From positions 1 to 12,173 of IMG/VR virus record IMGVR_UViG_3300028883_000031: a stretch of 12,173 nucleotides of DNA. One strand, given 5' to 3'. The translations under genes and the position numbers were made by a program. The notes under the pieces were generated by a model that ran no database searches, had not been told where the DNA came from, and was given only the letters and a program-made list of their open reading frames with translations. The DNA comes from a virus. Below, in pieces: positions 1 to 12,173 of this stretch; positions within the stretch are counted from its first letter, which is position 1; each line of letters opens with the position of its first letter.

Positions 1-127
1 ATTCCACTTAAACTTGGTGGTCTATTAAACTTTACTCTTATTGCTAATTGATTCCAAATGTCTTGTTCTAATAAAGTCTGCTCTTCAACATACACTGGTT
101 CAAAAGTCATATAACCCACTTTAGATG
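1..127. repeat. Terminal overlap copy 1, identical to 12047..12173 (circular-assembly signature or terminal redundancy)
   Basis: Base-by-base comparison of the first 127 nt with the last 127 nt shows identity; the unit length is therefore 12,046 bp. Confidence 0.97.
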
Positions 128-1010
128 CTGCCTCTGTGAAATCAGATGTATTGGCAATAGCTTTGGGAATACCCACAGCTTGATAAAAGAACCCTTCTAA
201 ATATCTAATCCAATCCAGGAAAGGTTGTAAAGGTGGAGTTGTGTAATCCATAACTTCAATGTCTTTGTTTTGCCTTCCAGGTAATACCAAAACTTCTCCA
301 TCCTTAATTGCTGTTTTCCATTGTGTTCTTAATTCTGATAATTTGGTTGGGTTATCAATATCACAATAAATAACTCTAATTGAACTTCTATGTGATATTC
401 TTCGCCAGTCTCTCATTGCTTCATTTCTTGCTTCAATAACCCACTTAACTGCTTCCCAAGATGGAGTTCCATGTATTTCAGATGCTATTCTATCATTAGA
501 AATATGAAATATCTCCTCTGGTTGCCATTTAACCTCTGTAGGTTTTCCATCCTTTCCTAATTCAGTGTATCCTTCTATTAATCCTTTTTTATTAAATAAA
601 ACTCTTATTTTTCTTGGATTTAGAGGAATTAAATTAACTAATCTACCATCTTTCTCATCTCTAATTATTTCAGCATAAGCATCACCATTTATTTTTTTAG
701 TAATAATTAAAGAAGTCATAATTGATTGAAAACTATCTTCACCCCATCCCTCAATATTATCTAAAGTAATTTTATCTTTATCTTGTTCAACATTATAACC
801 TCTTCCAATAGCCCATCTTGCTAATGCCCTAATGGCTTCTTTAAACTCTGGAATGTTTTTATAAATTCCTAATCCCTCAGACCAATAAGTATTATCCCAA
901 TAAGTTCTCTTTTGCTCTTCTGTATCGTCAATATGTTCTGAAGGAGTTTTATAGTCGAGCCCTGCTGAGTTTAGTTCTGTTGTTGTTGTGTTTGATAAAT
1001 TTCTTTCCAT
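1..1010 (-). CDS. Portal protein, 5' 1010 nt of a 1095-nt ORF (364 aa) that wraps across the window junction to a stop at 11962
   Basis: Hand translation from ATG 1010..1008 (TAATG overlap with the upstream stop) stays open to position 1. It reads MERNLSNTTTTELNSAGLDYKTP...INGDAYAEIIRDEKDGRLVNLIPLNPRKIRV...WQPEEIFHISNDRIASEIHGTPSWEAVKWVIEARNEAMRDW...AVGIPKAIANTSDFTEAASKVGYMTFEPVY. These blocks resemble conserved blocks of the HK97/SPP1-type Phage_portal family. The gene sits in a head-module context. No search was run. Confidence 0.8.
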   Translation of the reverse strand, partial: MERNLSNTTTTELNSAGLDYKTPSEHIDDTEEQKRTYWDNTYWSEGLGIYKNIPEFKEAIRALARWAIGRGYNVEQDKDKITLDNIEGWGEDSFQSIMTSLIITKKINGDAYAEIIRDEKDGRLVNLIPLNPRKIRVLFNKKGLIEGYTELGKDGKPTEVKWQPEEIFHISNDRIASEIHGTPSWEAVKWVIEARNEAMRDWRRISHRSSIRVIYCDIDNPTKLSELRTQWKTAIKDGEVLVLPGRQNKDIEVMDYTTPPLQPFLDWIRYLEGFFYQAVGIPKAIANTSDFTEAASKVGYMTFEPVYVEEQTLLEQDIWNQLAIRVKFNRPPSLSG

Positions 1011-1684
1011 TATTCTTCTATTCTAAAAGGAACATACACATTTAAATCTGAGTGTCCGTCATCTGCTACAACCCAATCAGGTGTGCCGCCAATATCTTCA
1101 TTTTTAGGATTAATAGGCAAATACATCTGACAAGTAACCCCGTCAGAAGAACGATGTCCATACATTTCAACTTTTAATCTTAAAATATCATCTTTTACAA
1201 ATTGTTTTTCAGTCATACTCACTTCTAAACAAAATGGAAAAGTAAAAAATTTTGTATAATTTCCAGCTAATGTTTCAGTTTGCACTGTCCCTATTGTAGT
1301 GGCAGTAGTTCCGTCATAATGTTCAAATGTAAAAAGAATATATCCTTGGCATTCATCATTTGGGTTATCAGGGCAGTAAAAACCCAAAGTTCCTTCAATA
1401 TATGCTGTTCCTTTAACATATTTAGCTTTATTAAATGGAGATAAAGCAAATGTAGCTGTCTTTTCTAAAGTAAAAGAAGGACCTGCTTCTGTTAAAGCAT
1501 CACTTAAAATAAACAAAGGGTCTCCGTTTAAAATCTGTTTTGACAACTTAAATGATTCTCCAGTGGAGTCAGTGCTTCCAAAACATTTAAGAGCAACAAT
1601 ACCAGTTCCATCTGAGATGTCCTCGTAATCATAATTAATTATTTGGTTTGAACCTACATTAAAGTCTTGTGAAATTGTTGCCAT
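1010..1684 (-). CDS. Hypothetical beta-rich virion protein (224 aa)
   Basis: Long ORF tightly coupled between the 122-aa gene and the portal (one base separates it from the upstream stop; TAATG overlap downstream). Composition suggests an all-beta fold. No recognisable motif. Confidence 0.6.
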   Translation of the reverse strand: MATISQDFNVGSNQIINYDYEDISDGTGIVALKCFGSTDSTGESFKLSKQILNGDPLFILSDALTEAGPSFTLEKTATFALSPFNKAKYVKGTAYIEGTLGFYCPDNPNDECQGYILFTFEHYDGTTATTIGTVQTETLAGNYTKFFTFPFCLEVSMTEKQFVKDDILRLKVEMYGHRSSDGVTCQMYLPINPKNEDIGGTPDWVVADDGHSDLNVYVPFRIEE

Positions 1685-1685
1685 T

Positions 1686-2054
1686 TTAACTAATTGTCAA
1701 ATATGCTTTAATATTTGAATCTTTAATTTGTGCTAATCCTTTGCTTAGATGTGTTTGAAGTAAATTAAGTCTTAATGCTGCACCATTTACACCAATAGAT
1801 TCTGGTTCATATCCTATAATTTTTTGAGCAATATAAGCACAACAGATAGTGCTTAATATTTCTTTTCCACTGGAAGTCAAGGAGGCATAATTAGTTATTA
1901 CATCATAATCGCATTCATTACAGACTAAAGATTCAGCTTCATCACTCCATTTGTCGAGAGTATCTTTACTACTTCCATAATTCACAATAGTAGTATTTGT
2001 ATTAGCACCAGCCGTATCTATTGCTGCTCCGCTTGTGCATAATGTCCAACTCAT
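1686..2054 (-). CDS. Hypothetical protein (122 aa), possible head-completion/connector protein by position only
   Basis: ORF starts one base after the TerL stop (TAACATG). No motif recognised. Confidence 0.55.
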   Translation of the reverse strand: MSWTLCTSGAAIDTAGANTNTTIVNYGSSKDTLDKWSDEAESLVCNECDYDVITNYASLTSSGKEILSTICCAYIAQKIIGYEPESIGVNGAALRLNLLQTHLSKGLAQIKDSNIKAYLTIS

Positions 2055-2055
2055 G

Positions 2056-3459
2056 TTAAAAGTAATATATACTCATATTTATATGTTTCTGATTTGCTAA
2101 CCATGCTGCTCTTGTCAATCCTTCAACTAAATCTGTAAATTTATGTTGTGCAGCAAAGATTTTAACCATTGTTTTTCTACCTTCTTCTCTTGGATATTCA
2201 TACTGGATAGCTCTCAGACATTCTATTAATTCTTCGTCATCTAATAATTGAATTTTACCTTTTTCCATTAGAGCTATCAAATTATCATACAAATCTTCTT
2301 TCAAAATTCTTCTATATTTCTCATTTCTACTATCTAAAGATTTCTTCAGATTATTTATAGCAACTATCTTATGTCTTATTCCAGGTTCTTTAATTAACCA
2401 ATCAAAAATTCCAACTCCAAGACTACCAGAACCAGCATCTATTCCAATTTTACGGAAATCCCATATTGCATCCATCATTAAAATATGGTCGTAAGTTTGA
2501 GTTGTTAAAGTCTTTCTTGTGTATTGGCTTTCTCTCTGTGCTAATCTTCCTTGTGGAAGTCTCTCTATAACTTCATAAGTAGAGGCATCATCTCCCATTC
2601 TTGCTATATCAACACCCAAATAGTAATCTCTATCTGGTATTCTTTGAGTTCTCTTTAATACACAGCACTTCTTTATGATTCTATCTGAGAATAAACGTCT
2701 AAAGTCAGATACAAATTCCCCCAAGTATTCCTGTGCATATTGTAATTCAGACATTCTTGCTTTTTCTCTATCTTGATGAGCCAACATATTCGAACTTTGT
2801 GGCTCTTCTCTTTGTTTGGCAATATCTTCTGCATTGATGTGCCATGTCTTAAAGTCTTTGTCAAAGAATCTATCGTGAAAATATCCTTTATCTCCCATTG
2901 GTGTTGAGAGTAAAATTATCTTTCCGCCTGTTGTTGCTAACATTGGAGTAATGGCAGGCCAAACACTCTCTGGAATAAATGCAGCTTCGTCAGCTATTAA
3001 TAAATCAACAGTGTATCCTCGTATCCCAAGACCATCCAATCCAGTTGGCAAACATCTGATTATACTTCCATTGTTCAGCTTTATTTCTGTCTTTGTTGGT
3101 CTGTCTTTTCCTTTCTTTATCCATGTTCGGTAGTTGTCGTGTAAATATGTTAATACCTTTGAGAAAAGCAAATAAGCTTGACGCTCTGTTGCTGATATTA
3201 TCATTATGGATTGCTTTTTGTTTAGAGCTGCGAACTTTCCTGCTTTTCTTGCTATGATTGTCGATTTTCCTACTTGCCTTCCTGCTCGAAGTGCTATGTT
3301 TCCGTCGTAATCCTCTACTTCTCGCTGCCATCTGTCAAGGGTAATCTTATCAGATTCTTTAATTTGTCCTCTGACATCTTTAGAATCATCTCGTTGATTT
3401 CCTTCTCTGCTTGCATTTGCAGAATGGACTTCTCCGACTTTTCTTTTATTTGTTGCCAT
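2056..3459 (-). CDS. terL: Terminase large subunit
   Basis: 467-aa ORF with Walker A GRQVGKST, Walker B-like VDLLIADEAAF and coupling motif LLSTP. The C-terminal half has acidic RNase-H-like nuclease motifs (YLGVDIARMGDD, IGIDAGSG). Confidence 0.93.
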   Translation of the reverse strand: MATNKRKVGEVHSANASREGNQRDDSKDVRGQIKESDKITLDRWQREVEDYDGNIALRAGRQVGKSTIIARKAGKFAALNKKQSIMIISATERQAYLLFSKVLTYLHDNYRTWIKKGKDRPTKTEIKLNNGSIIRCLPTGLDGLGIRGYTVDLLIADEAAFIPESVWPAITPMLATTGGKIILLSTPMGDKGYFHDRFFDKDFKTWHINAEDIAKQREEPQSSNMLAHQDREKARMSELQYAQEYLGEFVSDFRRLFSDRIIKKCCVLKRTQRIPDRDYYLGVDIARMGDDASTYEVIERLPQGRLAQRESQYTRKTLTTQTYDHILMMDAIWDFRKIGIDAGSGSLGVGIFDWLIKEPGIRHKIVAINNLKKSLDSRNEKYRRILKEDLYDNLIALMEKGKIQLLDDEELIECLRAIQYEYPREEGRKTMVKIFAAQHKFTDLVEGLTRAAWLANQKHINMSIYYF

Positions 3460-3509
3460 AACTCTTCTTCTTGATTACCGATAACAATTTCGTTATTATT
3501 TTTTTCCAT
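3315..3509 (-). CDS. Hypothetical 64-aa acidic/coiled protein; first, leaderless ORF of the structural operon; overlaps the terL 5' end by 145 nt
   Basis: Its ATG at 3509 lies 19-21 nt from the palindromic TATA box 3529..3538. The ORF reads in a different frame from terL (start 3459). Coding status is uncertain. Confidence 0.4.
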   Translation of the reverse strand: MEKNNNEIVIGNQEEELWQQIKEKSEKSILQMQAEKEINEMILKMSEDKLKNLIRLPLTDGSEK

Positions 3510-3528
3510 AATAAAAAAAAGAAAAAAG

Positions 3529-3538
3529 TATTTAAATA
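3529..3538. promoter_or_regulatory. Palindromic TATA box TATTTAAATA, promoter of the terL/portal operon, possibly bidirectional
   Basis: Lies 19-21 nt upstream of ATG 3509, matching the spacing at five other operon starts. Confidence 0.6.
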
Positions 3539-3560
3539 ATTTGTGTTTTCTCTGTGTAGA

Positions 3561-3605
3561 GTTGAGGGGGTTTATACTTTTCCCTCCTCGACTTTTTTCT
3601 TTTTT
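3561..3605 (+). other. Imperfect 10-bp hairpin (3561..3570 / 3583..3592) followed by T6CT6; candidate small RNA or oligo-T terminator
   Basis: The stem contains two G-T pairs, which are tolerated only in a plus-strand RNA. The T-run at 3593..3605 follows immediately. The stem starts about 22 nt downstream of the TATA box at 3529..3538. Confidence 0.3.
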
Positions 3606-3757
3606 AAAATAATAAAAAAAAATTTAAAAAATTTCGTTGAGGGGTAAGCACTTTTTATAAACTACATTTTTGAACGTCGGGGTTATTTGTAGTGTATAAA
3701 TAGAAATTGATTTGCGAGTTAGCCGGTATACCGATTAACTACACTGCCTCTGCGCCT

Positions 3758-3835
3758 AATTGAATTAAGTCCGCTTTGTGAAGCGGATTGCCTCTATAGA
3801 GGCAACTTTGCCCACAGGCAAAGCTTAATTCAATT
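3758..3835. other. Perfect 78-nt four-way-junction (cloverleaf-like) element: 12-bp closing stem plus three 7-bp hairpins with 4-nt loops
   Basis: Closing stem is 3758..3769 / 3824..3835. The hairpins are 3770..3787 (loop TGTG), 3788..3805 (loop TATA) and 3806..3823 (loop CACA). All 33 pairs are Watson-Crick and no junction nucleotide is unpaired. Confidence 0.85.
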
Positions 3836-3849
3836 CCTCCTCATCCTCC

Positions 3850-3978
3850 TCCTTTACCTGTATGCGAACGCAATGTAACCGAAAATTATATATATTATGA
3901 AAACTTAGTTTGAGGAACTCAAACTAAATTCTTAAGATAAATAAAGATGCGAACGAATGTGAGCATACAGGTAAAGGA
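3850..3978. repeat. 16-bp perfect inverted repeat (3850..3865 / 3963..3978) enclosing a 10-bp hairpin (3905..3914 / 3918..3927) and a direct repeat ATGCGAACG(C)AATGT (3862..3876, 3947..3960)
   Basis: All pairs checked by hand. The enclosed segment also carries a TA-alternating stretch near 3885..3898. Confidence 0.85.
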
Positions 3979-3998
3979 ACTATAACCTCGCTCCGCTC

Positions 3999-4053
3999 GG
4001 TAAATATTGAACTGGTAAATATTGAACTGGTAAATATTGAACTGGTAAATACT
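3999..4053. repeat. Tandem 15-bp repeat GGTAAATATTGAACT, three perfect copies plus a partial copy (iteron-like)
   Basis: Copies at 3999..4013, 4014..4028 and 4029..4043, with a partial copy at 4044..4053. Confidence 0.9.
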
Positions 4054-4062
4054 AAATTATTA

Positions 4063-4089
4063 AGTAGTTATGAAAAAGTAGTTATGAAA
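4063..4089. repeat. Direct repeat AGTAGTTATGAAA, two copies with 14-bp period
   Basis: Copies at 4063..4075 and 4077..4089. Confidence 0.8.
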
Positions 4090-4165
4090 GTTTAAATAAA
4101 AGGGGTATTGTGTATTAGTAGAATATGAGTATTTTACCTGTTTGTATATCTCATGGAGGGGGAAT

Positions 4166-4291
4166 GTGTGTTCTCTCTCTGTAGGAATTTGAATTACCTT
4201 AGTTGGAATTCTATTATATTGGTTTCTTTCTTTCTTTTCTTTTTGGTTCTTTTTCTTTTCTTTCTTTCAATATGACAGAGAGAGAACACAC
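4166..4291. repeat. 17-bp perfect inverted repeat GTGTGTTCTCTCTCTGT / ACAGAGAGAGAACACAC flanking a 92-nt spacer
   Basis: Arms at 4166..4182 and 4275..4291, all pairs checked. The right arm ends 7 nt before the TATA box of the plus-strand gene. Confidence 0.9.
4226..4268. repeat. Perfect homopyrimidine mirror repeat (19 nt, 5-nt spacer, 19 nt), an H-DNA/triplex-type motif
   Basis: CTTTCTTTCTTTTCTTTTT at 4226..4244 read backwards equals TTTTTCTTTTCTTTCTTTC at 4250..4268. The spacer GGTTC is at 4245..4249. Confidence 0.85.
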
Positions 4292-4298
4292 CAAAACA

Positions 4299-4306
4299 TT
4301 TAAATA
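4299..4306 (+). promoter_or_regulatory. TATA box TTTAAATA with upstream A-rich BRE-like CAAAACA; promoter of the leaderless plus-strand gene
   Basis: Exactly 21 nt separate the box from ATG 4328. Confidence 0.65.
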
Positions 4307-4327
4307 GTTTAATGTTTTAGTTTTGAT

Positions 4328-4567
4328 ATGAATATTAATGCAATAAGAGCTGAAGAAAGACATAGAAAGATAGTAGAAATATTAGCTACTATAAAAAAAG
4401 CTTTTGAGAATGGCTTAGAATTGAATTTTGAAGCGTTGATTAATCAAGCATGCTTTCAGCAAAGAATAGCAAGAAGGACAGCCATGGAATACATAAACAT
4501 AGCATTAAGCCAAGTGGAACATAAAATAGAAGGAAAAGGAAAAAATAAATTAATAATTAAGATTTAA
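4328..4567 (+). CDS. Small winged-helix-turn-helix-like DNA-binding protein (79 aa), candidate regulator
   Basis: This is the only plus-strand gene and it is leaderless. It shows a helix-helix-helix pattern with a recognition-helix-like RIARRTAMEYINIAL, then a basic beta-hairpin-like tail KIEGKGKNKLIIKI. Assigned by eye only. Confidence 0.5.
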   Translation: MNINAIRAEERHRKIVEILATIKKAFENGLELNFEALINQACFQQRIARRTAMEYINIALSQVEHKIEGKGKNKLIIKI

Positions 4568-4911
4568 AGAGGAATAACAGTGTATTTAGTCTTTAAACCT
4601 TCACCAGATTTCTTTACTTTAATATACGTTAGCTTTGGATTCTCTAACAATATATCTTGTAAAGCCATTAGCACAGACTTAGGAACTTTATACTTTTCCC
4701 CTTCAAGCATAAAATAGCTGTAAGGAAAATCAACATCGTTCTCTTCTTGAATTAGCACATCATCAATCTTAACTTTATCTAAATCTGCAATGTTCTTAAT
4801 TTTTGGTGCTTCATAGTTTTCAGCTGTTTCTTTGAGAGTTGCCATTTGTTCTACTACCTCCTTACATCTATATAAATATTCTTCTTCACTTAGTCCTTCT
4901 TTGTTTATCAT
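4564..4911 (-). CDS. Hypothetical protein (115 aa), last gene of the small-protein operon
   Basis: Clean ORF. It overlaps the upstream gene by 26 nt, and its stop overlaps the stop of the convergent plus-strand gene. Confidence 0.6.
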   Translation of the reverse strand: MINKEGLSEEEYLYRCKEVVEQMATLKETAENYEAPKIKNIADLDKVKIDDVLIQEENDVDFPYSYFMLEGEKYKVPKSVLMALQDILLENPKLTYIKVKKSGEGLKTKYTVIPL

Positions 4912-5092
4912 TTTCTATCATATCAGCTAACACATTATAAAAACCAAATACTATTGAGAGTACTATACAAAGTCTTAAAACCCAAAAAGCATAATACCAA
5001 AATGCAAAACAAATTAAAGCAAATATAATAAACAAAAGCAAAGCAGAATAAATAAAATTCTCTGTTGTTGTTAATTCTTTTGCATAATTCAT
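4886..5092 (-). CDS. Small membrane protein (68 aa, two predicted TM helices)
   Basis: Hydrophobic stretches FIYSALLLFIIFALICFAFWYYAFWVL and CIVLSIVFGFYNVL. SD cassette GTGGAGGATTTGAAATG lies at the start. Confidence 0.6.
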   Translation of the reverse strand: MNYAKELTTTENFIYSALLLFIIFALICFAFWYYAFWVLRLCIVLSIVFGFYNVLADMIENDKQRRTK

Positions 5093-5283
5093 TTCAAATC
5101 CTCCACTTTTAATTTTTGCATAGCTTCATAATTAATGGCCTCAACTTCTTCTTTTGTTAAAAAGTTAAATCTTCTTAAAATTGTAATTGCTGCATGCACA
5201 CCTTTTCTTATTTTGACAACTCTTTCTCCAGCTTCTTCGCCTGGATAATGCATGTGATGTTTTTGCCAAACTACTTTTTTCAT
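5089..5283 (-). CDS. Hypothetical protein (64 aa)
   Basis: ORF with ATGA start/stop coupling on both sides and an upstream GAAGGATTTAAAATG. Confidence 0.6.
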   Translation of the reverse strand: MKKVVWQKHHMHYPGEEAGERVVKIRKGVHAAITILRRFNFLTKEEVEAINYEAMQKLKVEDLK

Positions 5284-5528
5284 TTTAAATCCTTCTCGTC
5301 ACAAAAGACATCTTGATTAATAAGATTAAGTCTTTTCATCCATCTCTCTGTCAAAGTATCAAAATCACAAACATTTTCAAAATCATATTTCATCCACTTA
5401 ATAGCTTCTTGTTTTAGTAAATCTTCGGGTATTGCTCTTTTCTTTTTACATTCATCCTTTAAATAAAAAAGTGGAAACCAACAAAAACATTCTTTATCTG
5501 AAAAATCTTTTAAAGTTTTAAGTTTCAT
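5280..5528 (-). CDS. Hypothetical protein (82 aa), paralogue of 5525..5734; start moved to internal Met
   Basis: The start MKLKTLKDF is preceded by GAGGAGGATTTAGAATG and overlaps the upstream stop (ATGA). It shares MKLKTLKD and EAIKW with its neighbour. Confidence 0.6.
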   Translation of the reverse strand: MKLKTLKDFSDKECFCWFPLFYLKDECKKKRAIPEDLLKQEAIKWMKYDFENVCDFDTLTERWMKRLNLINQDVFCDEKDLK

Positions 5529-5734
5529 TCTAAATCCTCCTCTCTGATGTTGAAGAAATCTAACCAATCTCTACTTGATATTGCCCCACCATAATGTTTC
5601 CACCACTTAATAGCTTCTGCTTTTAGTTTTTTATAATTAATAACCAATTCATAATCATTACTTAGGGGAGGTCTTACTTTCCTTGTTTTAGTTGTTGAAT
5701 ACCGTTTTAAATCCTTCAAAGTTTTAAGTTTCAT
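5525..5734 (-). CDS. Hypothetical protein (69 aa), paralogue of 5280..5528
   Basis: Begins MKLKTLKDLKRY and contains AEAIKWWKHY. SD cassette AAAGGAGATTTAAAATG lies at the start. Confidence 0.6.
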   Translation of the reverse strand: MKLKTLKDLKRYSTTKTRKVRPPLSNDYELVINYKKLKAEAIKWWKHYGGAISSRDWLDFFNIREEDLE

Positions 5735-5955
5735 TTTAAATCTCCTTTTTCTTTTTTATCTTTTGAGAATATTTCTTTAATAGTTTCATCAATTTCAACT
5801 CTTCTTATAAAACCATCTTCACATTTAACCCCATTATGTAATCTTATTTTCAATTCCTCAATCTTTTTTTTAAAATCCTCTTGGGCTTTTTTGTAACCCA
5901 TTTTTAATCCTATTTTAAAATCTTCACTTACATTGGTTGTTATTTCTTTTTTCAT
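5731..5955 (-). CDS. Hypothetical protein (74 aa)
   Basis: ORF with the SD cassette TTGGAGGATTTAAAAAATG. Confidence 0.6.
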   Translation of the reverse strand: MKKEITTNVSEDFKIGLKMGYKKAQEDFKKKIEELKIRLHNGVKCEDGFIRRVEIDETIKEIFSKDKKEKGDLK

Positions 5956-6034
5956 TTTTTAAATCCTCCAAACTATCATTTACTACTTCTCTCCATTTTT
6001 TACATAACTTTTTATCTTTATATTCTTTTGTCAT
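5924..6034 (-). CDS. Possible 36-aa ORF (MTKEYKDKKLCKKWREVVNDSLEDLKNEKRNNNQCK)
   Basis: Hand-translated. ATGA coupling to the upstream 44-aa ORF. It overlaps the next gene by 32 nt. Below the track threshold. Confidence 0.3.
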   Translation of the reverse strand: MTKEYKDKKLCKKWREVVNDSLEDLKNEKRNNNQCK

Positions 6035-6165
6035 TTTTTAATTATTAATTGAATCCATTTAGTTATAATTCCAATAATCGCTAAAAAAATAATTATTCCC
6101 AATCTTACATTAATGGATTTCAACAAAGTGTATAAGGCAAAGCCATCATTTGTTAAAGGCATCAT
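6031..6165 (-). CDS. Possible 44-aa single-pass membrane protein (MMPLTNDGFALYTLLKSINVRLGIIIFLAIIGIITKWIQLIIKK)
   Basis: Hand-translated, with a hydrophobic core GIIIFLAIIGII. AGGAGGT lies about 17 nt upstream. Confidence 0.4.
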   Translation of the reverse strand: MMPLTNDGFALYTLLKSINVRLGIIIFLAIIGIITKWIQLIIKK

Positions 6166-6238
6166 TTTCTAAATCTATAACCTCCTGTATTGTTTTACAA
6201 TGTTCGCATATATATTCAAAACTAATTTCTGTTTCCAT
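6146..6238 (-). CDS. Possible 30-aa ORF with a single CxxC (METEISFEYICEHCKTIQEVIDLENDAFNK)
   Basis: Hand-translated. It overlaps the 3' end of the RHH-like gene. Confidence 0.25.
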   Translation of the reverse strand: METEISFEYICEHCKTIQEVIDLENDAFNK

Positions 6239-6380
6239 TTCGTTTTACACTTTCTCCCTTTGTGAGCGTTAAAATAAATTTGTGCCATGGATAACTTGGG
6301 TTTCCTTTGCTTTTTTTTCTTTTTGCTTTCTTTAACTTTTTATATTCCTCGTCGGTAAAAGTAACATTTATTGTTTTCAT
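6222..6380 (-). CDS. Ribbon-helix-helix (CopG/Arc-like) DNA-binding protein candidate, 52 aa, first leaderless gene of the small-protein operon
   Basis: Hand-translated as MKTINVTFTDEEYKKLKKAKRKKSKGNPSYPWHKFILTLTKGESVKRNGNRN. The N-terminal beta-strand plus helix pattern (INVTFTDEEYKKLKK) is typical of RHH proteins. A TATA box lies 21 nt upstream. Confidence 0.5.
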   Translation of the reverse strand: MKTINVTFTDEEYKKLKKAKRKKSKGNPSYPWHKFILTLTKGESVKRNGNRN

Positions 6381-6401
6381 ATACTTACTTAGTAACTAAC
6401 C

Positions 6402-6409
6402 TTTATAAA
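6402..6409 (-). promoter_or_regulatory. TATA box TTTATAAA with BRE-like AGAAACA; promoter of the small-protein operon
   Basis: Exactly 21 nt separate it from ATG 6380. The flanks resemble the promoter at 10501..10508 (TTTATAAA..TAAC/TAGTTA..CTAAGTATATG). Confidence 0.65.
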
Positions 6410-6414
6410 TGTTT

Positions 6415-6570
6415 CTATTTTTCCAAAGCATCCATTAATTCCTTAATTCTTTTAAGCTGAGCTTCTAAATTCTCTTTTCTTTGAAGAAGCTGAGACTTTC
6501 CAAAAATAGTTCTACTCTCTTTTATCAGCGCAACATTATTATCATCAACTTTAATAATTTTTTCTTCCAT
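6415..6570 (-). CDS. Hypothetical 51-aa coiled-coil protein (MEEKIIKVDDNNVALIKESRTIFGKSQLLQRKENLEAQLKRIKELMDALEK)
   Basis: Hand-translated. A strong SD (GGAAGGAGGTG) lies 7 nt before the ATG, which directly follows the LamG gene stop (TAGATG). Confidence 0.55.
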   Translation of the reverse strand: MEEKIIKVDDNNVALIKESRTIFGKSQLLQRKENLEAQLKRIKELMDALEK

Positions 6571-7398
6571 CTAAAACACCTCCTTCCAACTATCATCTAC
6601 ATTAACATAGGCATTGGCTACTTCTTTCCATGCATCATCTACATTAACATAGGCATTAGCTACTTCTTTAAAAGAATCATTAATATTTAAAGTGATGTTT
6701 GTTCCAGTTGGAAGAGGGTCAAAAGGATAGGCCCAACCATCACCACCATTATATAAACTATCTATATCAGCATCAGAAATCTCATCATCAAAAATTCCAA
6801 ACTCATCAAGGTAGCCATTAAAATAAGTAAAGTAAGGATGTCTGTCCCTTCCCATATATGAAATATCTGAACCAGTGGGTCTACTTCTATCATCCCCTAC
6901 ATAATGCCAACTAACACTCTTCTCACTTCCATCAATCCAAATCTGATAATTTCCTTCTCCGCCATCTCCACTACCTGTAACAACTACGTGATACCATGTT
7001 CCAGTAGATAAATTAGCATCTGTTGTAATGTATTGATTATTTGAACCTGGAGTTCCAACAGAAAAATAATATTCTATTTCATCTCCTACAATAGCAATGC
7101 TTTCTCTGACTGCTGTATTATCACTTCCTTTATAATAAATCATTGTTCCATCTCCAGCAGCTCCTAAATCATCAGTATTAAACCAAAAAGAATAACCTAC
7201 TGATGCAGTGAAAGCATCTGAACCAAAAGAAATATAATCAGAATTAGCAGATTCAAAATCATAACTATCATTAATAATTCCAGTTTCTCCATAAGTGCAA
7301 CCATTAACAGAACCATCTAAAGAACCTTCTGCATCAATTAAGTCTCCACTACTCTCGTCAAATTTATAGTAGTGAGTGCAGTCATCTATTAATGCCAT
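6571..7398 (-). CDS. LamG/concanavalin-A-like lectin domain protein (275 aa from internal Met), probable receptor-binding or fibre-associated protein
   Basis: Begins ALIDDCTHYYKFDESSGDLIDAEGSLDGSVNG. Contains GTWYHVVVTGSG, YQIWIDGSEK and FNGYLDEFGIFDDEISDADIDSLY, the Laminin_G_3-type pattern. The start is set at ATG 7398, just after the fibre stop (TAAAATG). Confidence 0.75.
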   Translation of the reverse strand: MALIDDCTHYYKFDESSGDLIDAEGSLDGSVNGCTYGETGIINDSYDFESANSDYISFGSDAFTASVGYSFWFNTDDLGAAGDGTMIYYKGSDNTAVRESIAIVGDEIEYYFSVGTPGSNNQYITTDANLSTGTWYHVVVTGSGDGGEGNYQIWIDGSEKSVSWHYVGDDRSRPTGSDISYMGRDRHPYFTYFNGYLDEFGIFDDEISDADIDSLYNGGDGWAYPFDPLPTGTNITLNINDSFKEVANAYVNVDDAWKEVANAYVNVDDSWKEVF

Positions 7399-7399
7399 T

Positions 7400-8146
7400 T
7401 TAAGCTGTGTATTTAAAATAGATTGTTCCTTGGTTATAAAGATTTGCTGGTCCAGGATTGTCCTCTGTTCCAACTAAAATATTTCTACAAATAGCAGCGC
7501 CGCTTGCATCATTATCAGATAAAGTTTTAATTGTAGCACCTGAAACAGCCGCACCAGAAAAATGACCTGTTGAAGTAATATTTGTTTGGGTTAGTGTCTC
7601 TCCATGAGGGTCAGTTGTATCTACAAAATGAGCAGCACCACTTGCTAAATCTGTGTTCCAACTTCCACTAAGAGATAAAGGCAAATAATCAGCAACAACA
7701 GAACCACTTAAAGCCAAGAAGATTGGGTCTGCTTCTGCTGTAATAAAGTTCCCACTTAATGCCAAAAACACTGGGTCTGTTTCTGTATAAGATGTTAAAA
7801 AATTTCCTGATAGTGCCAAAAATATAGGGTCTGTTTCAGCAGTGAGAAATCCCCCTGATAGTGCTAAGAAAACTGGGTCTGTCTCTGCTGTTAAAAATCC
7901 ACCTGACAAAGCTAAAAAGACTGGGTCTGTTTCAGTGTAAGAAGTAATATAACCAGAATCATTTGTTAATTGTGAAATATTATCGCCTGTTTGTAGAAAT
8001 GTAGCAGTAGAACCTTTTTTAGCAGCGTCTTTAATACCTGAAAAATTAGGAATTATAATTGGTTCTCCAGTAGATAACTCTATTAAATTATCTTTTGCCA
8101 CCATAGTTGCTTCACTTGGCCGCCTTCCACTTCTAAAGTTTCCCAT
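7400..8146 (-). CDS. Fibre/receptor-binding-type structural protein with five ETDP(V/I)FLALSG repeats
   Basis: 248-aa ORF with 16-18-aa repeats YTETDPVFLALSGGFLTA and variants. E-T-D-P-V-F repeats are familiar from tail-fibre proteins. It sits immediately upstream of the LamG gene. Confidence 0.6.
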   Translation of the reverse strand: MGNFRSGRRPSEATMVAKDNLIELSTGEPIIIPNFSGIKDAAKKGSTATFLQTGDNISQLTNDSGYITSYTETDPVFLALSGGFLTAETDPVFLALSGGFLTAETDPIFLALSGNFLTSYTETDPVFLALSGNFITAEADPIFLALSGSVVADYLPLSLSGSWNTDLASGAAHFVDTTDPHGETLTQTNITSTGHFSGAAVSGATIKTLSDNDASGAAICRNILVGTEDNPGPANLYNQGTIYFKYTA

Positions 8147-8292
8147 TATCTAAAATTCCCACTCGCAAAAGTTAAATCTTCAATAGGTTTTAAAGACATA
8201 CCCTCTGGTTTTTCTTTAGTTGTTTCTGCTGTAATCCCCTCGGTAATAGGCCAATCTTCTTTTAATTCTTTTTGTCCTAATGTTTCAGCCAT
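8146..8292 (-). CDS. Hypothetical 48-aa protein (MAETLGQKELKEDWPITEGITAETTKEKPEGMSLKPIEDLTFASGNFR), leaderless first gene of the fibre operon
   Basis: Hand-translated. A TATA-like box lies 21 nt upstream. TAATG coupling to the fibre gene. Confidence 0.45.
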   Translation of the reverse strand: MAETLGQKELKEDWPITEGITAETTKEKPEGMSLKPIEDLTFASGNFR

Positions 8293-8313
8293 ACAAATTA
8301 ATAGAATTAATAG

Positions 8314-8321
8314 TTTATAAT
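8314..8321 (-). promoter_or_regulatory. TATA-like box (ATTATAAA on the minus strand) with upstream GGAAAAA
   Basis: Exactly 21 nt separate it from ATG 8292. Confidence 0.55.
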
Positions 8322-8333
8322 TTTTTCCTATTC

Positions 8334-8408
8334 TTAGCTTTCAGAATCGCCAGTGATTTCTTCAACAATTTCTTTTTCAACTTCTTTAGTTTGTTCTTCT
8401 GTCATCAT
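8334..8408 (-). CDS. Possible 24-aa acidic peptide (MMTEEQTKEVEKEIVEEITGDSES)
   Basis: TAATG overlap with the capsid gene stop. Very short, so coding status is doubtful. Confidence 0.2.
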   Translation of the reverse strand: MMTEEQTKEVEKEIVEEITGDSES

Positions 8409-9271
8409 TAACATCCAGTAGTCATACACATAGCATTAGGGTCAGTTACAATAACTTCTCCATCTTCCCATACTCTAACCTTAACACCAATGCCAGGCTC
8501 TTCTTTAGTAATTGCAGTGATAGGTGTAAATGATTTCCATGTAGCACACCTTTGAGGAACTATTTGCATAATTATTCCAGTTGTAGCATTTGGACTTGAT
8601 ACTATTCTTTGCCCTGCTAAATTCATAATTACTCCATCTTGCACCTTCTGAGTTGCAAATCCAGGAACATAAGTTCCTTTTTGTGTTATAATCCAATCAA
8701 GTAATGCTTTCTTTTGGTTTGGATGCATTAACACCACCAAGTTAGAAGTATCATAATTTCGTTGTTCTATTAAATTAGCACCTGAAAGTAAATCTCTAAC
8801 TGGATTACATGACGCAATAGTATCCCAGTCAGCAGTAGCAGCACCACTTAAAGCAACTTGTCCACTTAATACATCGTAAATTCTATAATCAATTTGATTC
8901 TGAACAGCCCTTGTTAAATCTCTCACATTAATAGCCAGCATATCTAAATCACTATCTCTAATGTCTGCATAAGTAAACCATGGAGATTCAACTGAGAAAT
9001 GTTTAACATATGAAGTGTGTCTTGTTGCTGATTGTTCAGCAATAGGAGGCAAAGCACCAAAAGCAACTTTAGATATTTGAGATGCAGTTATTCCAGTTGT
9101 ATCAGTTGAATCTAATACACCTGATGTTTTCCTATACCATCTAATCTCACGAGCACTTGTAGGAGAGTTTGCTAAAAACTTCTTGAATATAAACATTTGG
9201 TCAGCATAACCTTTAGCTAATTTGTCTACATTCAATCCACGAAGGTCAGCTTGTCCTAATGTATCTGCCAT
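8408..9271 (-). CDS. Major capsid protein, HK97 fold
   Basis: 287-aa ORF directly downstream of a DUF2190-like gene, with a scaffold-like gene further upstream. It has a long helix-like segment INVRDLTRAVQNQIDYRIYDVL and overall resembles phage major capsid proteins. Assigned by eye. Confidence 0.8.
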   Translation of the reverse strand: MADTLGQADLRGLNVDKLAKGYADQMFIFKKFLANSPTSAREIRWYRKTSGVLDSTDTTGITASQISKVAFGALPPIAEQSATRHTSYVKHFSVESPWFTYADIRDSDLDMLAINVRDLTRAVQNQIDYRIYDVLSGQVALSGAATADWDTIASCNPVRDLLSGANLIEQRNYDTSNLVVLMHPNQKKALLDWIITQKGTYVPGFATQKVQDGVIMNLAGQRIVSSPNATTGIIMQIVPQRCATWKSFTPITAITKEEPGIGVKVRVWEDGEVIVTDPNAMCMTTGC

Positions 9272-9272
9272 T

Positions 9273-9686
9273 TTATACTGCGGCTCCTATGTTTAAAGTA
9301 TATCTAAATGTTTCTCCAGCAGCAGCAGCTTCTTTAGAGATTCCAATAGTATGACTACCTGAAAGTCCTGCTGTAGCAGCTTGTAAGTGATTAGGAAAAG
9401 CAGCATCGCAACTTGAAAGAGTATCTCCAATAGCAATAGCACCTGAAGCATAAGCTCTCAATTCATCACCAGGCCCGTTAAGAACTGCTATCTGAGTATT
9501 TCCATCATCAGCAATTTTTTCAGTGTAAGCAATACCTCCAACAACATCTTCAGCTGTATCATTAGCAGCAACAGTGTTTGGGTCAGTCATCTTTAAAACT
9601 GTCCCTTTTTCAATTCCAGTGCCATCTGCGCAAGTCATAGAAGTAGGAAAAGTCTTTTGTAACATTAATACATGTTCATTAGCCAT
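9273..9686 (-). CDS. DUF2190-like head decoration/cement protein (137 aa from ATG 9686)
   Basis: Pattern GTVLKMTDPNTVAA...VVGGIAYTEKIADDGNTQIAVLNGPGDELRAYASGAIAIGDTL, located immediately before the capsid gene. The track start at 9701 is a GTG, whereas ATG 9686 lies exactly 21 nt from a TATA box. Confidence 0.6.
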   Translation of the reverse strand: MANEHVLMLQKTFPTSMTCADGTGIEKGTVLKMTDPNTVAANDTAEDVVGGIAYTEKIADDGNTQIAVLNGPGDELRAYASGAIAIGDTLSSCDAAFPNHLQAATAGLSGSHTIGISKEAAAAGETFRYTLNIGAAV

Positions 9687-9707
9687 AAAAAACTTATACA
9701 CTACAAG

Positions 9708-9715
9708 TATTTAAA
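9708..9715 (-). promoter_or_regulatory. TATA box (TTTAAATA on the minus strand) with BRE-like CAAAAGA; capsid operon promoter
   Basis: Exactly 21 nt separate it from ATG 9686. Confidence 0.65.
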
Positions 9716-9727
9716 TCTTTTGTTTTT

Positions 9728-10219
9728 TTATAATCCCTCATGATTACCCAGTGCTGTTTGAATTGGAAGGTCAGGTCTCCATCCAATACCTAAAATATTA
9801 ACATGTTCCTTATATATTGGATTTCTCCAAAACCCTAATGAAGTGTCTTTAACTAATTTCTTTGCCTTTAACATTATTCTTAATGCTGATAAATAACCTT
9901 GAACTCCAAAACCACTTCTGAAAGAATTGCCAGTTCCTTCTTCTTTAGCACCAGTATCTAACCAGGTTTCACTTGTAGGAATACCCAAAGTATTACACAT
10001 AGGGCCTACATATTCGTCAGGAATTACATACTCCCATAATTGAATAGGTCTAATTGCACCTTCTACATTTGTAATAACTTCACTTTCTATTTCTTTACCA
10101 GTATCTTTATCTATAAATTTCTTTTTAGATTTAAAAGGAAAATATTGAGACTTTAAATTTTCAATTAACTTTCTTACATGGTCTTGATGTCCTCGTGTAA
10201 TAAAATATATTCCTGCCAT
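9728..10219 (-). CDS. Hypothetical protein (163 aa) in the head module
   Basis: Clean ORF sharing base 10219 with the upstream stop (TAATG). No motif recognised, and I cannot support a protease call. Confidence 0.6.
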   Translation of the reverse strand: MAGIYFITRGHQDHVRKLIENLKSQYFPFKSKKKFIDKDTGKEIESEVITNVEGAIRPIQLWEYVIPDEYVGPMCNTLGIPTSETWLDTGAKEEGTGNSFRSGFGVQGYLSALRIMLKAKKLVKDTSLGFWRNPIYKEHVNILGIGWRPDLPIQTALGNHEGL

Positions 10220-10479
10220 TAATATTCGCCCCTCTCTATTCTATCCACATAATCCGAGGGTGTTTCTTCTTTTTTTTCAGGTTCTTCTCCTCTTTCGCTT
10301 TTTCCACCGAGAATGTTCCGAGCAGCTAACTCTTCATTTCTCTCAACTAATTCTCTCATTTGTTCAACTGCTTTTTCATTTTTCTCAGCTAACTCACGAG
10401 CTTCTTTTAAAAAATCTGCTCTTGCAGGTTTCTTAACATCTTCAGGTTTAACATCTTCTTCAGAATTTTCTGTTTCCAT
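10219..10479 (-). CDS. Scaffolding-like protein (86 aa, acidic, coiled-coil)
   Basis: Highly charged helical sequence FLKEARELAEKNEKAVEQMRELVERNEELAARNILGG, upstream of the decoration and capsid genes. Leaderless, with a TATA box 21 nt upstream. Confidence 0.5.
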   Translation of the reverse strand: METENSEEDVKPEDVKKPARADFLKEARELAEKNEKAVEQMRELVERNEELAARNILGGKSERGEEPEKKEETPSDYVDRIERGEY

Positions 10480-10500
10480 ATACTTAGTTAGTTAGTTTAG

Positions 10501-10508
10501 TTTATAAA
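10501..10508 (-). promoter_or_regulatory. TATA box TTTATAAA with BRE-like AGAAAAA
   Basis: Exactly 21 nt separate it from ATG 10479. Confidence 0.65.
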
Positions 10509-10513
10509 TTTTT

Positions 10514-10603
10514 CTATAATAAGAAAGATAAAACTTTTAAAATAAACACTCCTAAGACAGCTCCTCCAAATGCTCTCCAAAAATCAATTTCTCCGTTTCT
10601 CAT
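10514..10603 (-). CDS. Possible 29-aa membrane peptide (MRNGEIDFWRAFGGAVLGVFILKVLSFLL)
   Basis: Hand-translated. ATGA overlap with the stop of the 386-aa gene. Confidence 0.3.
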   Translation of the reverse strand: MRNGEIDFWRAFGGAVLGVFILKVLSFLL

Positions 10604-11760
10604 TTTAAGTTCACCATATTGTTTGTAGATTGATTTGTTTGAGAAGTGAAATACAGCATATCATTAGGAATTATATCTTTCTCTCCAAGCATTAAAGTAT
10701 TTTCCACAGCCCTTAAAGTTTCAGCCATGTTATTTCTTGCAGTTGCTATTTCTTGTTGTAAAACTAAATATTCTTTTGAAGATTTAAATTTAATATTTGC
10801 TATTGAACGCTGTTTTAATATAGCTTCCCATTCTTGAATTTGTTGTTGTTGTTTTTGAATAGTCATAAAAATTGTTTGTGGTGGCATTCCAGCGTCTAAG
10901 TTTCCTCTTAATTGGTCTTGTGCACTATCTACTTCAGAAACATATTGTGATGCAATATCTATTTTATCTTGACCTAAAGAAGCTGGATTAGAACCTCCTA
11001 TTATTGCACCAAATGCAGCACCACCAGCAGCTCCCATTTTTCCAGTAGCCAACTTTGCAGCACCTAAAACCTCAGCTCCACCCAGAGCACCAGCAGCTAT
11101 TAAAGCACCACCTAACATCCCAATAACTTTTGCTCCTCTTAATCTTGCCAAGTCTTTATTATCAAAACCTAAACTCTTAAACATGAAATTCTGAGAAGAT
11201 GCAAAAGGCATCTGAGCAGTTAAAACCTTAGCAATATCTCTCTCTCCTAATCCTTCTAAACCTTCTAAAAATGTTCTGGCTAATTCAGGTTGATTAATAG
11301 CCATCTCTTCTAATTCTTGTGTAAGTGGTTGAACTTGTCCCTCAACAAATTCTTCTCTTGCTATTCTTTCTTCATCAGGTAGTTCATCTGTTGTGATTAT
11401 TCCCTTTTCTAATTTTGGAAATCTTGGGTCATCTTCTGGAATGCCTGCGTTTCTTGCTCTGGCTTGTGCTAACTCTAATTTATCTTTATCTGTTTTAACA
11501 TCTTTATTTTTAAGACTTTGTTCTGCTGTTATATTTGCAGCAGTTACTCTATTCTGTTGTATTTGCTTTTGTTCTTCACTTAAATTTTTAGGGTATCTTC
11601 TTGTAGGTTTAGCTGCTTCTGTTACATTATCCAAAGTGCTCATAGGTGCAGAGCTTCCGCCACCGCTGCTTTTCTTCTTCTTTTTCTTAAAGGGATTTCC
11701 GTAATCTTTAGCCGAAGATGTGCTTACTAAATTCCCTCTCTTATCAAATACGATTGCCAT
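10600..11760 (-). CDS. Large virion protein candidate (386 aa) with a central glycine-zipper hydrophobic segment; internal/ejection or tape-measure-like
   Basis: A K6-SSGGGSS low-complexity stretch is followed by helical charged regions. A segment VIGMLGGALIAAGALGGAEVLGAAKLATGKMGAAGGAAFGAIIGG follows, then a Q-rich coiled C-terminus. It lies downstream of the portal. Function is inferred from composition only. Confidence 0.65.
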   Translation of the reverse strand: MAIVFDKRGNLVSTSSAKDYGNPFKKKKKKSSGGGSSAPMSTLDNVTEAAKPTRRYPKNLSEEQKQIQQNRVTAANITAEQSLKNKDVKTDKDKLELAQARARNAGIPEDDPRFPKLEKGIITTDELPDEERIAREEFVEGQVQPLTQELEEMAINQPELARTFLEGLEGLGERDIAKVLTAQMPFASSQNFMFKSLGFDNKDLARLRGAKVIGMLGGALIAAGALGGAEVLGAAKLATGKMGAAGGAAFGAIIGGSNPASLGQDKIDIASQYVSEVDSAQDQLRGNLDAGMPPQTIFMTIQKQQQQIQEWEAILKQRSIANIKFKSSKEYLVLQQEIATARNNMAETLRAVENTLMLGEKDIIPNDMLYFTSQTNQSTNNMVNLK

Positions 11761-11767
11761 TTTTTAT

Positions 11768-11965
11768 TTACCAGTAATGTTTTTTTCTTCCCCAATATTT
11801 AAAAAACTCTAACCCAGCCCCCACAATAATGCAGAGGAATCCGAAATAGTCTCTTGCTTGAACCATTACAACACCCGATGCTGTTAAAGCCAAAGCACAA
11901 GTGTTAATAATAGTTTCTATTATTGGTTTATGAACTCCGTTTTCTTCTATTTGTTTCTTTGTCAT
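11768..11965 (-). CDS. Small two-TM membrane protein (65 aa), holin-like by architecture only
   Basis: Hydrophobic segments IINTCALALTASGVVMV and FGFLCIIVGAGLEFF, with a basic C-terminus GRKKHYW. ATGA overlap with the portal stop. Confidence 0.55.
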   Translation of the reverse strand: MTKKQIEENGVHKPIIETIINTCALALTASGVVMVQARDYFGFLCIIVGAGLEFFKYWGRKKHYW

Positions 11966-12173
11966 TCTGTTCGTTGTATATTTAATTCTGATTCGTTAGG
12001 TTGAAAACCTACTTGTCCTTGGTTCTTTTGTTCTTCTTCTTGCATCATTCCACTTAAACTTGGTGGTCTATTAAACTTTACTCTTATTGCTAATTGATTC
12101 CAAATGTCTTGTTCTAATAAAGTCTGCTCTTCAACATACACTGGTTCAAAAGTCATATAACCCACTTTAGATG
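11962..12173 (-). CDS. Portal protein, C-terminal segment; 12047..12173 duplicates 1..127, and unique sequence 11962..12046 carries the stop
   Basis: The 67-aa track ORF (M)GYMTFEPVYVEEQ... matches the in-frame continuation of the ORF leaving position 1. Its apparent M is a GTG inside the portal frame. Confidence 0.8.
   Translation of the reverse strand, partial: SKVGYMTFEPVYVEEQTLLEQDIWNQLAIRVKFNRPPSLSGMMQEEEQKNQGQVGFQPNESELNIQRTE
12047..12173. repeat. Terminal overlap copy 2, identical to 1..127
   Basis: Same comparison as for 1..127. Confidence 0.97.

Follow-up and report, generated by a model that had tools for sequence, protein, structure and literature searches.

The inverted terminal repeat (ITR) of adeno-associated virus (AAV) consists of two small palindromes inside a stem palindrome, serves as origin and occurs in flip and flop forms (PMC1131931). 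The ITR of AAV2 is the closest structural analogue of the element which is the subject of this work, a 78-nt four-way junction at positions 3758-3835 of a 12,173-nt stretch of viral DNA (IMG/VR record IMGVR_UViG_3300028883_000031, positions 1 to 12,173; hereafter the window). Both are multipalindromic sequences that fold into a branched hairpin; four of the divergent relatives in which a corresponding module was found (L044, L060, L081 and L167) share the exact layout of the ITR, and the window adds a third arm. In AAV the arm loops read AAA and TTT and the flip/flop exchange swaps the stems while the loops stay in place, which is the same rule as the one followed by the loops of the module. 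The AAV2 ITR likewise relies on host polymerases. It is, however, situated at the ends of a linear single-stranded genome, is self-priming and works with a viral Rep nickase, GNGC repeats and a terminal resolution site, whereas the module is internal in a circular or permuted, double-stranded, terminase-packaged genome, in the window as in the relatives, and neither an HUH Rep nor any other replication protein was found when all open reading frames (ORFs) were scanned with Pfam and PHROGs.

Other origins are also aided by intrastrand pairing of inverted repeats in the origin region after unwinding or supercoiling, namely those of plasmid pT181 (IR-II), herpes simplex virus (oriS), rolling-circle plasmids and filamentous phages (single-strand origins) and Haloarcula hispanica (oriC1). 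These are single hairpins or simple cruciforms, often formed on one strand and often read by an initiator which the element itself encodes, whereas the module joins three to four helices without spacer, is symmetric on both strands and belongs to a virus without an initiator gene. Archaeal origins consist of origin recognition boxes (ORBs) around an A/T-rich tract (PMC1904270, PMC4010727); Pyrococcus ORB1, CCCCCCAGAGTTTCATTTCCACTGGAA, is a published recognition box of Orc1/Cdc6 (PMC1904270), and in H. hispanica oriC1 a G-rich inverted repeat next to the ORBs enhances firing (PMC4010727). The corresponding non-coding region of relatives contains TTTCCAGTGGAAA-type dyads and G/C strings, which match published ORB sequences (PMC1904270), along with an A/T-rich tract, but there is no adjacent orc1/cdc6, the region of the window has no dyad within 3 mismatches and a branched module is part of no described ORB origin. 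Phage cos and pac sites adjoin terminase genes, as the module does, and one relative (L048) has the order HNH-module-TerL; the known sites are duplex sequences read by a small terminase subunit and not branched palindromes, and no contig ends map to the module. Literature searches turned up no account of this virus group, nor of any branched origin element like the module.

Structure of the junction in the window

A first-pass annotation of the window had described a 78-nt four-way junction available to both strands, made up of 33 Watson-Crick pairs, free of G-T pairs, mismatches and unpaired junction nucleotides, and with the loops TGTG, TATA and CACA. All of this holds for the window (sequences in Table 1): a 12-bp stem closes three abutting 7-bp hairpins, and the minimum-energy RNA fold of both strands is the four-way junction, at -37.6 kcal/mol (z -8.0 for the plus strand and -7.6 for the minus strand; none of 200 shuffles folded as well). 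With DNA parameters the fold has -29.6 kcal/mol and z -10.5. Fold and structure screens across the whole 12-kb window found no comparable second structure. The perfect inverted repeats give the same intrastrand fold on both strands, as those of a cruciform do.

In size and shape the junction recalls a tRNA, which is likewise a four-helix junction of about 76 nt. That it is not one, as the annotation had stated, is in accordance with an ARAGORN search (no tRNA genes) and with a scan of the whole window, both strands, with the Rfam 15 covariance models at E <= 1 (no matches). Unlike a tRNA, it has only 4-nt loops, no linker nucleotides at the junction, no 7-nt anticodon-type loop and no T-loop motif, and the same structure is found on the opposite strand.

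By a rough estimate about 43 kcal/mol are needed to turn the 78-bp duplex into two folded strands, and extrusion relaxes 7.4 superhelical turns, with a break-even superhelical density of about -0.05 in a 12-kb circle. A balance so near to break-even fits folding after opening rather than spontaneous extrusion; in this model extrusion from the duplex would be marginal, while folding after strand opening, or under negative supercoiling between divergent promoters, should be easy.

Conservation in divergent relatives

Relatives were collected in four ways, through TerL, a conserved 22-bp palindrome, capsid homologues and a covariance model. Twelve divergent lineages, with terminases 35-60% identical to that of the window, carry a three- or four-way module: the window, L031, L048, L084, L096, L137, L148 and L161 the four-way form, and L044, L060, L081 and L167 the three-way form. 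Its position is constant, 110-430 nt upstream of the terminase operon in the relatives and 249-300 nt in the window. The closing stem varies from 3 to 12 bp (only 3 bp in L137), while the hairpin arms keep a length of 7-9 bp and the hairpins abut exactly. The hairpins of L096, for example, read CTTGGCC-TTCTT-GGCCAAG, TGGGCTC-TATA-GAGCCCA and TCCCTTC-AAGAA-GAAGGGA, and those of the three-way L044 read CCGAACTC-TCGA-GAGTTCGG and GGCAAAGTC-TCGA-GACTTTGCC between the stem arms TTTATTTAGTCA and TGACTAAATAAA. The loops of the other four-way members are TTAGT/TATA/ACTAA in L148, TTCTT/TATA/AAGAA in L161, TTCGT/TATA/ACGAA in L137, TCTTAGTTC/TATA/ACTAA in L031, TTCTT/TATA/ACGAA in L084 and TCTA/TAGA/CACA in L048. 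The middle loop is thus TATA in seven of the eight, and the apex of hairpin 2, CTCTATAGAG, is the best-conserved part of the module; the CTTTGCC arm of hairpin 3 is also seen again in relatives.

Automatic alignment with MAFFT put members with 4-nt and 5-nt loops out of register, and we therefore compared seven lineages in a manual, structure-based register and four sequences in a gap-free alignment. Among the seven, all 144 of 144 hairpin pairs are Watson-Crick and at least two pair types occur at 20 of the 21 positions; when the 3' arms are swapped between lineages, 17-30 positions remain complementary, against 46-49 observed. The first-pass annotation had proposed to look for compensatory changes in related contigs, and the four-genome alignment provides them: 96 of 96 cells pair, 17 of the 24 pairs have changed on both sides and not one has changed on one side only. 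None of 500 shuffles matched this, and slid registers did not approach it either. A sliding 90-nt fold and a local-fold screen also detected structured regions in the relatives, too noisy to define the module, and a loose hairpin census that tolerated G.T pairs was swamped by chance matches until its settings were tightened. By the pairing statistics, therefore, the structure is selected; the four-way junction is confirmed, real and kept by compensating mutations.

The module occurs once per genome, and none was found outside the family in 1.3 Mb searched, unlike miniature inverted-repeat transposable elements or repetitive extragenic palindromes, which are marked by many copies per genome, terminal inverted repeats and target-site duplication. 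A search of IMG/VR for the exact element gave no match, the copy of the virus there being a partial contig without the region; blastn of the non-coding region against GenBank phages gave no match and a look-up of the exact TerL sequence no record.

On the smallest scale, that of the window's own population, the window and six further contigs about 98.7% identical to it carry the element. The hairpins are unchanged in these contigs. The epithet "perfect" used by the annotation suits the window but not this population: five of the seven have CGCA in place of CACA as loop 3, and in these five T3835 is replaced by G, which leaves a closing stem of 11 bp and an A.G mismatch. Because they are polymorphic, the twelfth stem pair and the exact complementarity of the loops are not fixed features. 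A 6-nt indel beside the element is also polymorphic among the near-identical contigs, and the 15-mer iteron listed in Table 1 is present there in 1.5, 2.5 or 3.5 copies.

DNA-level or RNA-level structure

The stems of 10 of the 12 lineages comprise about 275 pairs, all of them Watson-Crick and none G.T, and a detector that permitted G.T pairs found no further modules. The loops follow a rule of symmetry. In five of seven four-way lineages loops 1 and 3 are reverse complements of each other and the middle loop is the self-complementary TATA, and in three of the four three-way lineages both loops are the self-complementary TCGA; read 5' to 3', the bottom strand consequently displays an identical succession of loops, with the outer stems exchanged. 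The covariance model scores nearly equally on the two strands (for example 85.9 vs 68.2 bits and 78.9 vs 71.8 bits), and in L084 the module appears inverted relative to the terminase gene. Strand-specific conservation with tolerated G.U pairs or one-sided changes, as expected of a structured RNA, was not seen, and no promoter box lies at a constant distance from the module in the relatives. The lack of G.T pairs, the symmetric loops, the covariance scores on both strands and the lack of a fixed promoter all point to DNA and not RNA; most likely the module acts as folded DNA and not as a transcript. The annotation had suggested selection on a structure open to both DNA strands, for which the exclusively compensatory changes, together with the pairing, loops and scores just described, are strong backing.

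Possible function

What is observed is the structure with its compensatory conservation, the symmetry typical of DNA, the fixed position of the module and, in the relatives, an origin-like context; we infer that the module extrudes in vivo and has its role in replication rather than in packaging. The element is real, conserved and unusual, and is of the kind of structure-forming palindromes in viral control regions. Its most likely function, to which we assign a rough probability of 0.4, is that of a branched cruciform or "double cloverleaf" DNA module accessory to a replication origin.

The context is the following. In terminase orientation, the usual order in the family is (1) repeats, (2) the module, in many cases between C7 or G7 strings, (3) a TATA-like box and, adjoining it, the 22-bp palindrome GTTAWTCGGTNNACCGAWTAAC, (4) a dyad of the TTTCCAGTGGAAA type (in many genomes), (5) a CGACGTT or GAGAGTT motif and, about 30 nt on, GCTTAWCCCC.CTGACAAA, (6) an A/T-rich tract and (7) the promoter of the terminase operon. 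The TTTCCAGTGGAAA-type dyads and the G/C strings found in this region of many relatives match published Orc1/Cdc6 boxes. For the window the assignment as origin rests on this shared layout, on the iterons, on the A/T-rich tract and on the fact that there is no other non-coding DNA.

A possible mechanism would begin with the opening of the region, or with negative superhelical stress, brought about by an initiator at the origin-type repeats or by the flanking divergent promoters. Each opened strand could then fold into the same three-hairpin junction, with the same loops in the same order, and once folded the strands would keep the region from closing and so stabilize the open state. Two identical structures, one on each strand, might be a landing site for a host helicase, primase or junction-binding factor in both directions, and a virus without a replication protein would rely wholly on the replication machinery of its host. 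Since among 40 near-complete related genomes the module is not associated with any viral gene, any partner should be a host protein or a core protein.

Several observations weigh against this reading. The branched module is present in only 8 of the 40 near-complete related genomes (about 20%) and is hence not an essential core of the origin; at the equivalent place other relatives have single long hairpins with C7 or G7 loops, ORB repeats or no structure, and the module is one of several interchangeable structure-prone forms and not an indispensable core. It lies at least about 125 bp from the A/T-rich tract and not within it, and no ORB dyad within 3 mismatches was found in the non-coding region of the window. 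The symmetry of the loops is broken in L048, in L084 (at 1 of 5 positions), in L167 and, within the population of the window itself, in five of seven contigs. The location, finally, suits a packaging site equally well. As to the distribution, the first-pass annotation had held that a lack of the element in related genomes would speak against it; about 80% of them do lack it. The carriers, about one in five, keep the compensated pairing.

If the origin reading holds, some of what appear to be the smallest head-tailed viruses would possess a cis-element defined by shape, and the parvovirus-style rule of branched multipalindromes, with loops that read the same on both strands, would also hold for a site inside a double-stranded genome that a terminase packages. 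The module is in any case a testable handle on the way in which minimal viruses recruit host machinery, and its signature (compensatory changes only, no G.T pairs, symmetric loops) is a marker with which the control region of the family can be found and oriented. A bolder version, which we consider rather doubtful, sees in the module an internal counterpart of the parvovirus hairpin origin, a double cloverleaf free of any protein gene of its own at which host enzymes start or process the genome. Host primase or helicase might then load onto the two identical folded strands, or else a Holliday-junction nuclease, either host Hjc or the nuclease of the viral terminase, might cut the junction mimic to produce ends for replication or packaging. 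Were this true, it would amount to a new class of origin or packaging signal, set by DNA shape and loop symmetry and not by sequence.

An origin element and a packaging site had both been among the candidate roles named by the annotation, and they are our two leading readings. As a packaging signal, the folded or extruded junction would be bound or cut symmetrically by the terminase to start headful packaging, which we hold to be somewhat unlikely. TerL carries a nuclease of the RuvC/RNase-H type, and family scans of all ORFs found no small terminase subunit. The strand symmetry of the module suits a two-strand cut, and with a single non-coding region the packaging site must be near. The distance of 110-430 nt from the module to the terminase operon downstream of it is always kept, and this includes L048 and L084, in which the intact 22-bp palindrome lies elsewhere (L084 has a degenerate copy, with 2 mismatches, about 60 nt from the module). 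In L048 a gene for an HNH endonuclease (PF01844; 1891-2247) is located directly upstream of the module and TerL, and in HK97-like phages the HNH-terminase gene order brackets the cos site. On the other hand, the module is absent from about 80% of the relatives which share the same terminase, HNH occurs in 2-3 lineages only (the gene was found in L048 and L141), the contigs circularize at arbitrary positions, none of them ending at the module and with no sign of fixed ends there, and nothing ties TerL to the recognition of junctions.

The module could also be a functionless by-product or a selfish palindrome, with arms kept by template switching and spread by recombination among related viruses. 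Template switching is known to homogenize the arms of inverted repeats and to invert spacers (PMC8604942), the distribution of the module is patchy (about 20% of genomes, scattered across the family), the two C/G strings on either side of it adjoin each other in other genomes, and in L060 one flank is tandemly duplicated. A by-product is nevertheless improbable, as it would not be expected in a single copy per genome and nowhere outside the family in the 1.3 Mb searched, at a constant position, with arms of 7-9 bp, exact abutment and a conserved CTC-TATA-GAG apex, nor would it be expected to keep the rule of loop symmetry across lineages whose terminases are only 35-45% identical.

Still less probable is an array of duplex palindromic operators which never folds and is bound by dimeric regulators of the divergent promoters. 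Each hairpin is, as duplex, a palindrome of 18-19 bp, the TATA-like box beside the 22-bp palindrome follows 40-130 bp downstream of the module, and small unannotated proteins are encoded beside the region. However, the arms differ among hairpins and lineages and are yet perfectly self-complementary, for which many co-evolving regulators would be needed, no viral gene co-varies with the module, and a closing inverted repeat and junctions of zero nucleotides would be meaningless for the binding of duplex DNA.

The least probable is the "very rigid RNA" or structured non-coding RNA that the annotation had offered as an option, a tRNA-like four-way junction with a kissing contact between loops 1 and 3 and a promoter nearby, which has in its favor the cloverleaf-like size and shape, outer loops that are complementary and could in principle pair, and the sequence TATAAATA at 3695-3702, one mismatch from the TTTAAATA promoter boxes of the genome, but which is at odds with the lack of any G.U among about 275 pairs and of one-sided changes, with a structure and loops equally good on both strands, with a self-complementary middle loop that kissing does not explain, with the inversion in L084 and with the negative Rfam, tRNA and fixed-distance promoter searches. 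Loops of only 4-5 nt are too short for pairing over their whole length. The annotation was right on the presence of TATAAATA, for which the promoter role it proposed is not supported: the box is not conserved in relatives, is without the A-rich upstream stretch typical of the real promoters of this genome and overlaps, on the opposite strand, the motif TATACACTACA, which is an iteron in relatives.

Three other candidates were rejected, a telomere-resolution site (there is no protelomerase), an att site of an integrase (there is no integrase in the window) and a bidirectional terminator (for which the flanking promoters would have to converge, whereas they diverge).

Neighboring features of the control region

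The junction is part of the only sizeable non-coding stretch of the genome, about 820 bp (3510-4327) between divergent promoters; the coordinates of its features are collected in Table 1.

Table 1. Features of the non-coding stretch around the junction, in window coordinates.
Feature	Position	Strand	Basis or remark
TTTAAATA box	3530..3537	-	About 20 nt upstream of first ATG (3509) of terminase operon; archaeal-type leaderless promoter
A/T-rich tract	3593..3634		Candidate unwinding element and/or oligo-T terminator; equivalent in relatives
Conserved block CCCCGACGTT...GCTTACCCCTCAACGAAAT	3631..3683	-	Between palindrome and A/T-rich tract
22-bp palindrome GTTAGCCGGTATACCGATTAAC	3718..3739		Conserved in family; 18 nt from junction; TATA-like box before it (terminase orientation)
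Closing stem, 5' arm AATTGAATTAAG	3758..3769		RNA and DNA folds; outermost pair lost in 5/7 near-identical contigs
Hairpin 1, TCCGCTT-TGTG-AAGCGGA (+ strand)	3770..3787		Folds; compensatory variation at homologous positions in relatives
Hairpin 2, TTGCCTC-TATA-GAGGCAA	3788..3805		Perfect 18-bp palindrome; folds and relatives
Hairpin 3, CTTTGCC-CACA-GGCAAAG	3806..3823		Loop is reverse complement of loop 1
Closing stem, 3' arm CTTAATTCAATT	3824..3835		Sequence and folds
TCC/GGA-rich run flanking junction	3835..3853		6-nt indel polymorphism; position of the C7/G7 strings of relatives
Second large inverted repeat	3850..3978		Perfect 16-bp arms 3850-3865 and 3963-3978, 97 nt apart
Iterons, 15-mer GGTAAATATTGAACT x3.5	3999..4051		Copy number varies among near-identical contigs
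TTTAAATA box	4299..4306	+	21 nt upstream of ATG (4328) of divergent 79-aa gene

The 22-bp palindrome is in one subgroup placed directly upstream of the TATA box of the capsid operon instead, which suggests the operator of a regulator, probably one that belongs to the host or is shared. The form GTTAWTCGGTNNACCGAWTAAC is also present at 4630-4651 of L175 and 2511-2576 of L178. It was also found in contigs of metagenome-assembled genomes of Woesearchaeota and Nanoarchaeota, once as two copies beside a tyrosine integrase, which is a weak lead to DPANN hosts. The block that follows the palindrome has CCGACGTT (GCGAGAGTT in relatives), next about 30 variable nt, in some genomes with two G8 runs, and next GCTTAWCCCC.CTGACAAA and an A/T-rich tract; no conserved RNA fold was seen in it, and it is probably a two-part protein-binding site.

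The C/G strings that flank the module in module-bearing genomes form hairpin loops in others. In seven moduleless genomes (L143, L054, L057, L170, L176, L114 and L159) hairpins of 10-12 bp with C7 or G7 loops lie upstream of the 22-bp palindrome. The hairpins with C/G loops and the flanked module are two alternative arrangements of the same components.

The second inverted repeat of the window encloses a hairpin (3889-3943) and two direct repeats GATGCGAACG. Beyond the iterons, the 14-mer AAGTAGTTATGAAA is present twice at 4062-4089 and is iteron-like, and a perfect 17-bp inverted repeat, GTGTGTTCTCTCTCTGT at 4166-4182 and ACAGAGAGAGAACACAC at 4275-4291, surrounds a tract rich in TTTC that shortly precedes the 79-aa gene; L002 and L044 have similar CACAC/GAGAG repeats at the matching place. 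The best ORB match of the window, CTTCCAGTGGAAA at 1864-1876, lies in a 122-aa gene downstream of TerL and differs from the archaeal core dyad at a single position; the number of matches this good expected by chance in the genome is about 0.015. Scans with Pfam and PHROGs found no orc1/cdc6 gene in the genome.

The virus and its probable host

The first 127 bases of the window are repeated exactly at its end (1-127 and 12047-12173), so that the contig can be joined to a circle of about 12,046 bp, and the portal gene spans the contig ends. As a whole, the window represents the complete genome, circular or permuted, of a head-tailed virus whose promoters are of archaeal type. It encodes TerL, a portal protein, an HK97-type capsid protein, a fibre and a protein with a lectin fold, and all genes except one of 79 aa are on the minus strand; the Pfam and PHROGs scans of all ORFs found no replication, recombination, integration or small-terminase family. 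Promoter boxes, TTTAAATA or TTTATAAA, end 19-21 nt before the first ATG of the transcription units (ATGs at 3509, 4328, 6380, 8292, 9686 and 10479), while genes internal to operons have GGAGG ribosome-binding sites. Boxes and GGAGG sites together are an archaeal pattern with leaderless first genes. Scans for bacterial sigma-70 promoters and intrinsic terminators gave chance-level results only.

The nearest annotated terminase is that of the archaeal Halogranum tailed virus 1 (30% identity, E = 3e-41), and the capsid protein had no match among GenBank phages. In metagenomes 896 capsid homologues were found, on contigs that reach at most about 12-13 kb; many related contigs circularize through end overlaps of k-mer size with differing cut points. 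A search of GTDB genomes for proviruses with the capsid protein found none, and the relatives gave no tRNA or att clues. The hosts are probably archaea, perhaps of the DPANN lineages, and the viruses appear to be a previously undescribed family of about 12 kb, among the smallest head-tailed viruses. A distant relative with a TerL 37% identical to that of the window was found at one end of a 49,360-bp contig (L009/L039); this family member is perhaps an integrated provirus, in which case the contig could identify a host.

Variation within the window's own population is not confined to the control region. From 5296-5501 onward to about 6600, the near-identical genomes, which are 98.7% identical up to 5296, fall to about 84-96% and exchange small genes; past 5296, the 95-, 69- and 74-aa ORFs of the window give way to called products of 93 as against 115 aa and to others of 83, 56 and 91 aa. 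This part, 5296 to about 6600, is a hypervariable cassette of small ORFs without database matches. In the fibre gene a 48-nt tandem repeat in 2.7 copies (7806-7935) encodes the repeated peptide TETDPVFLALSGGFL.

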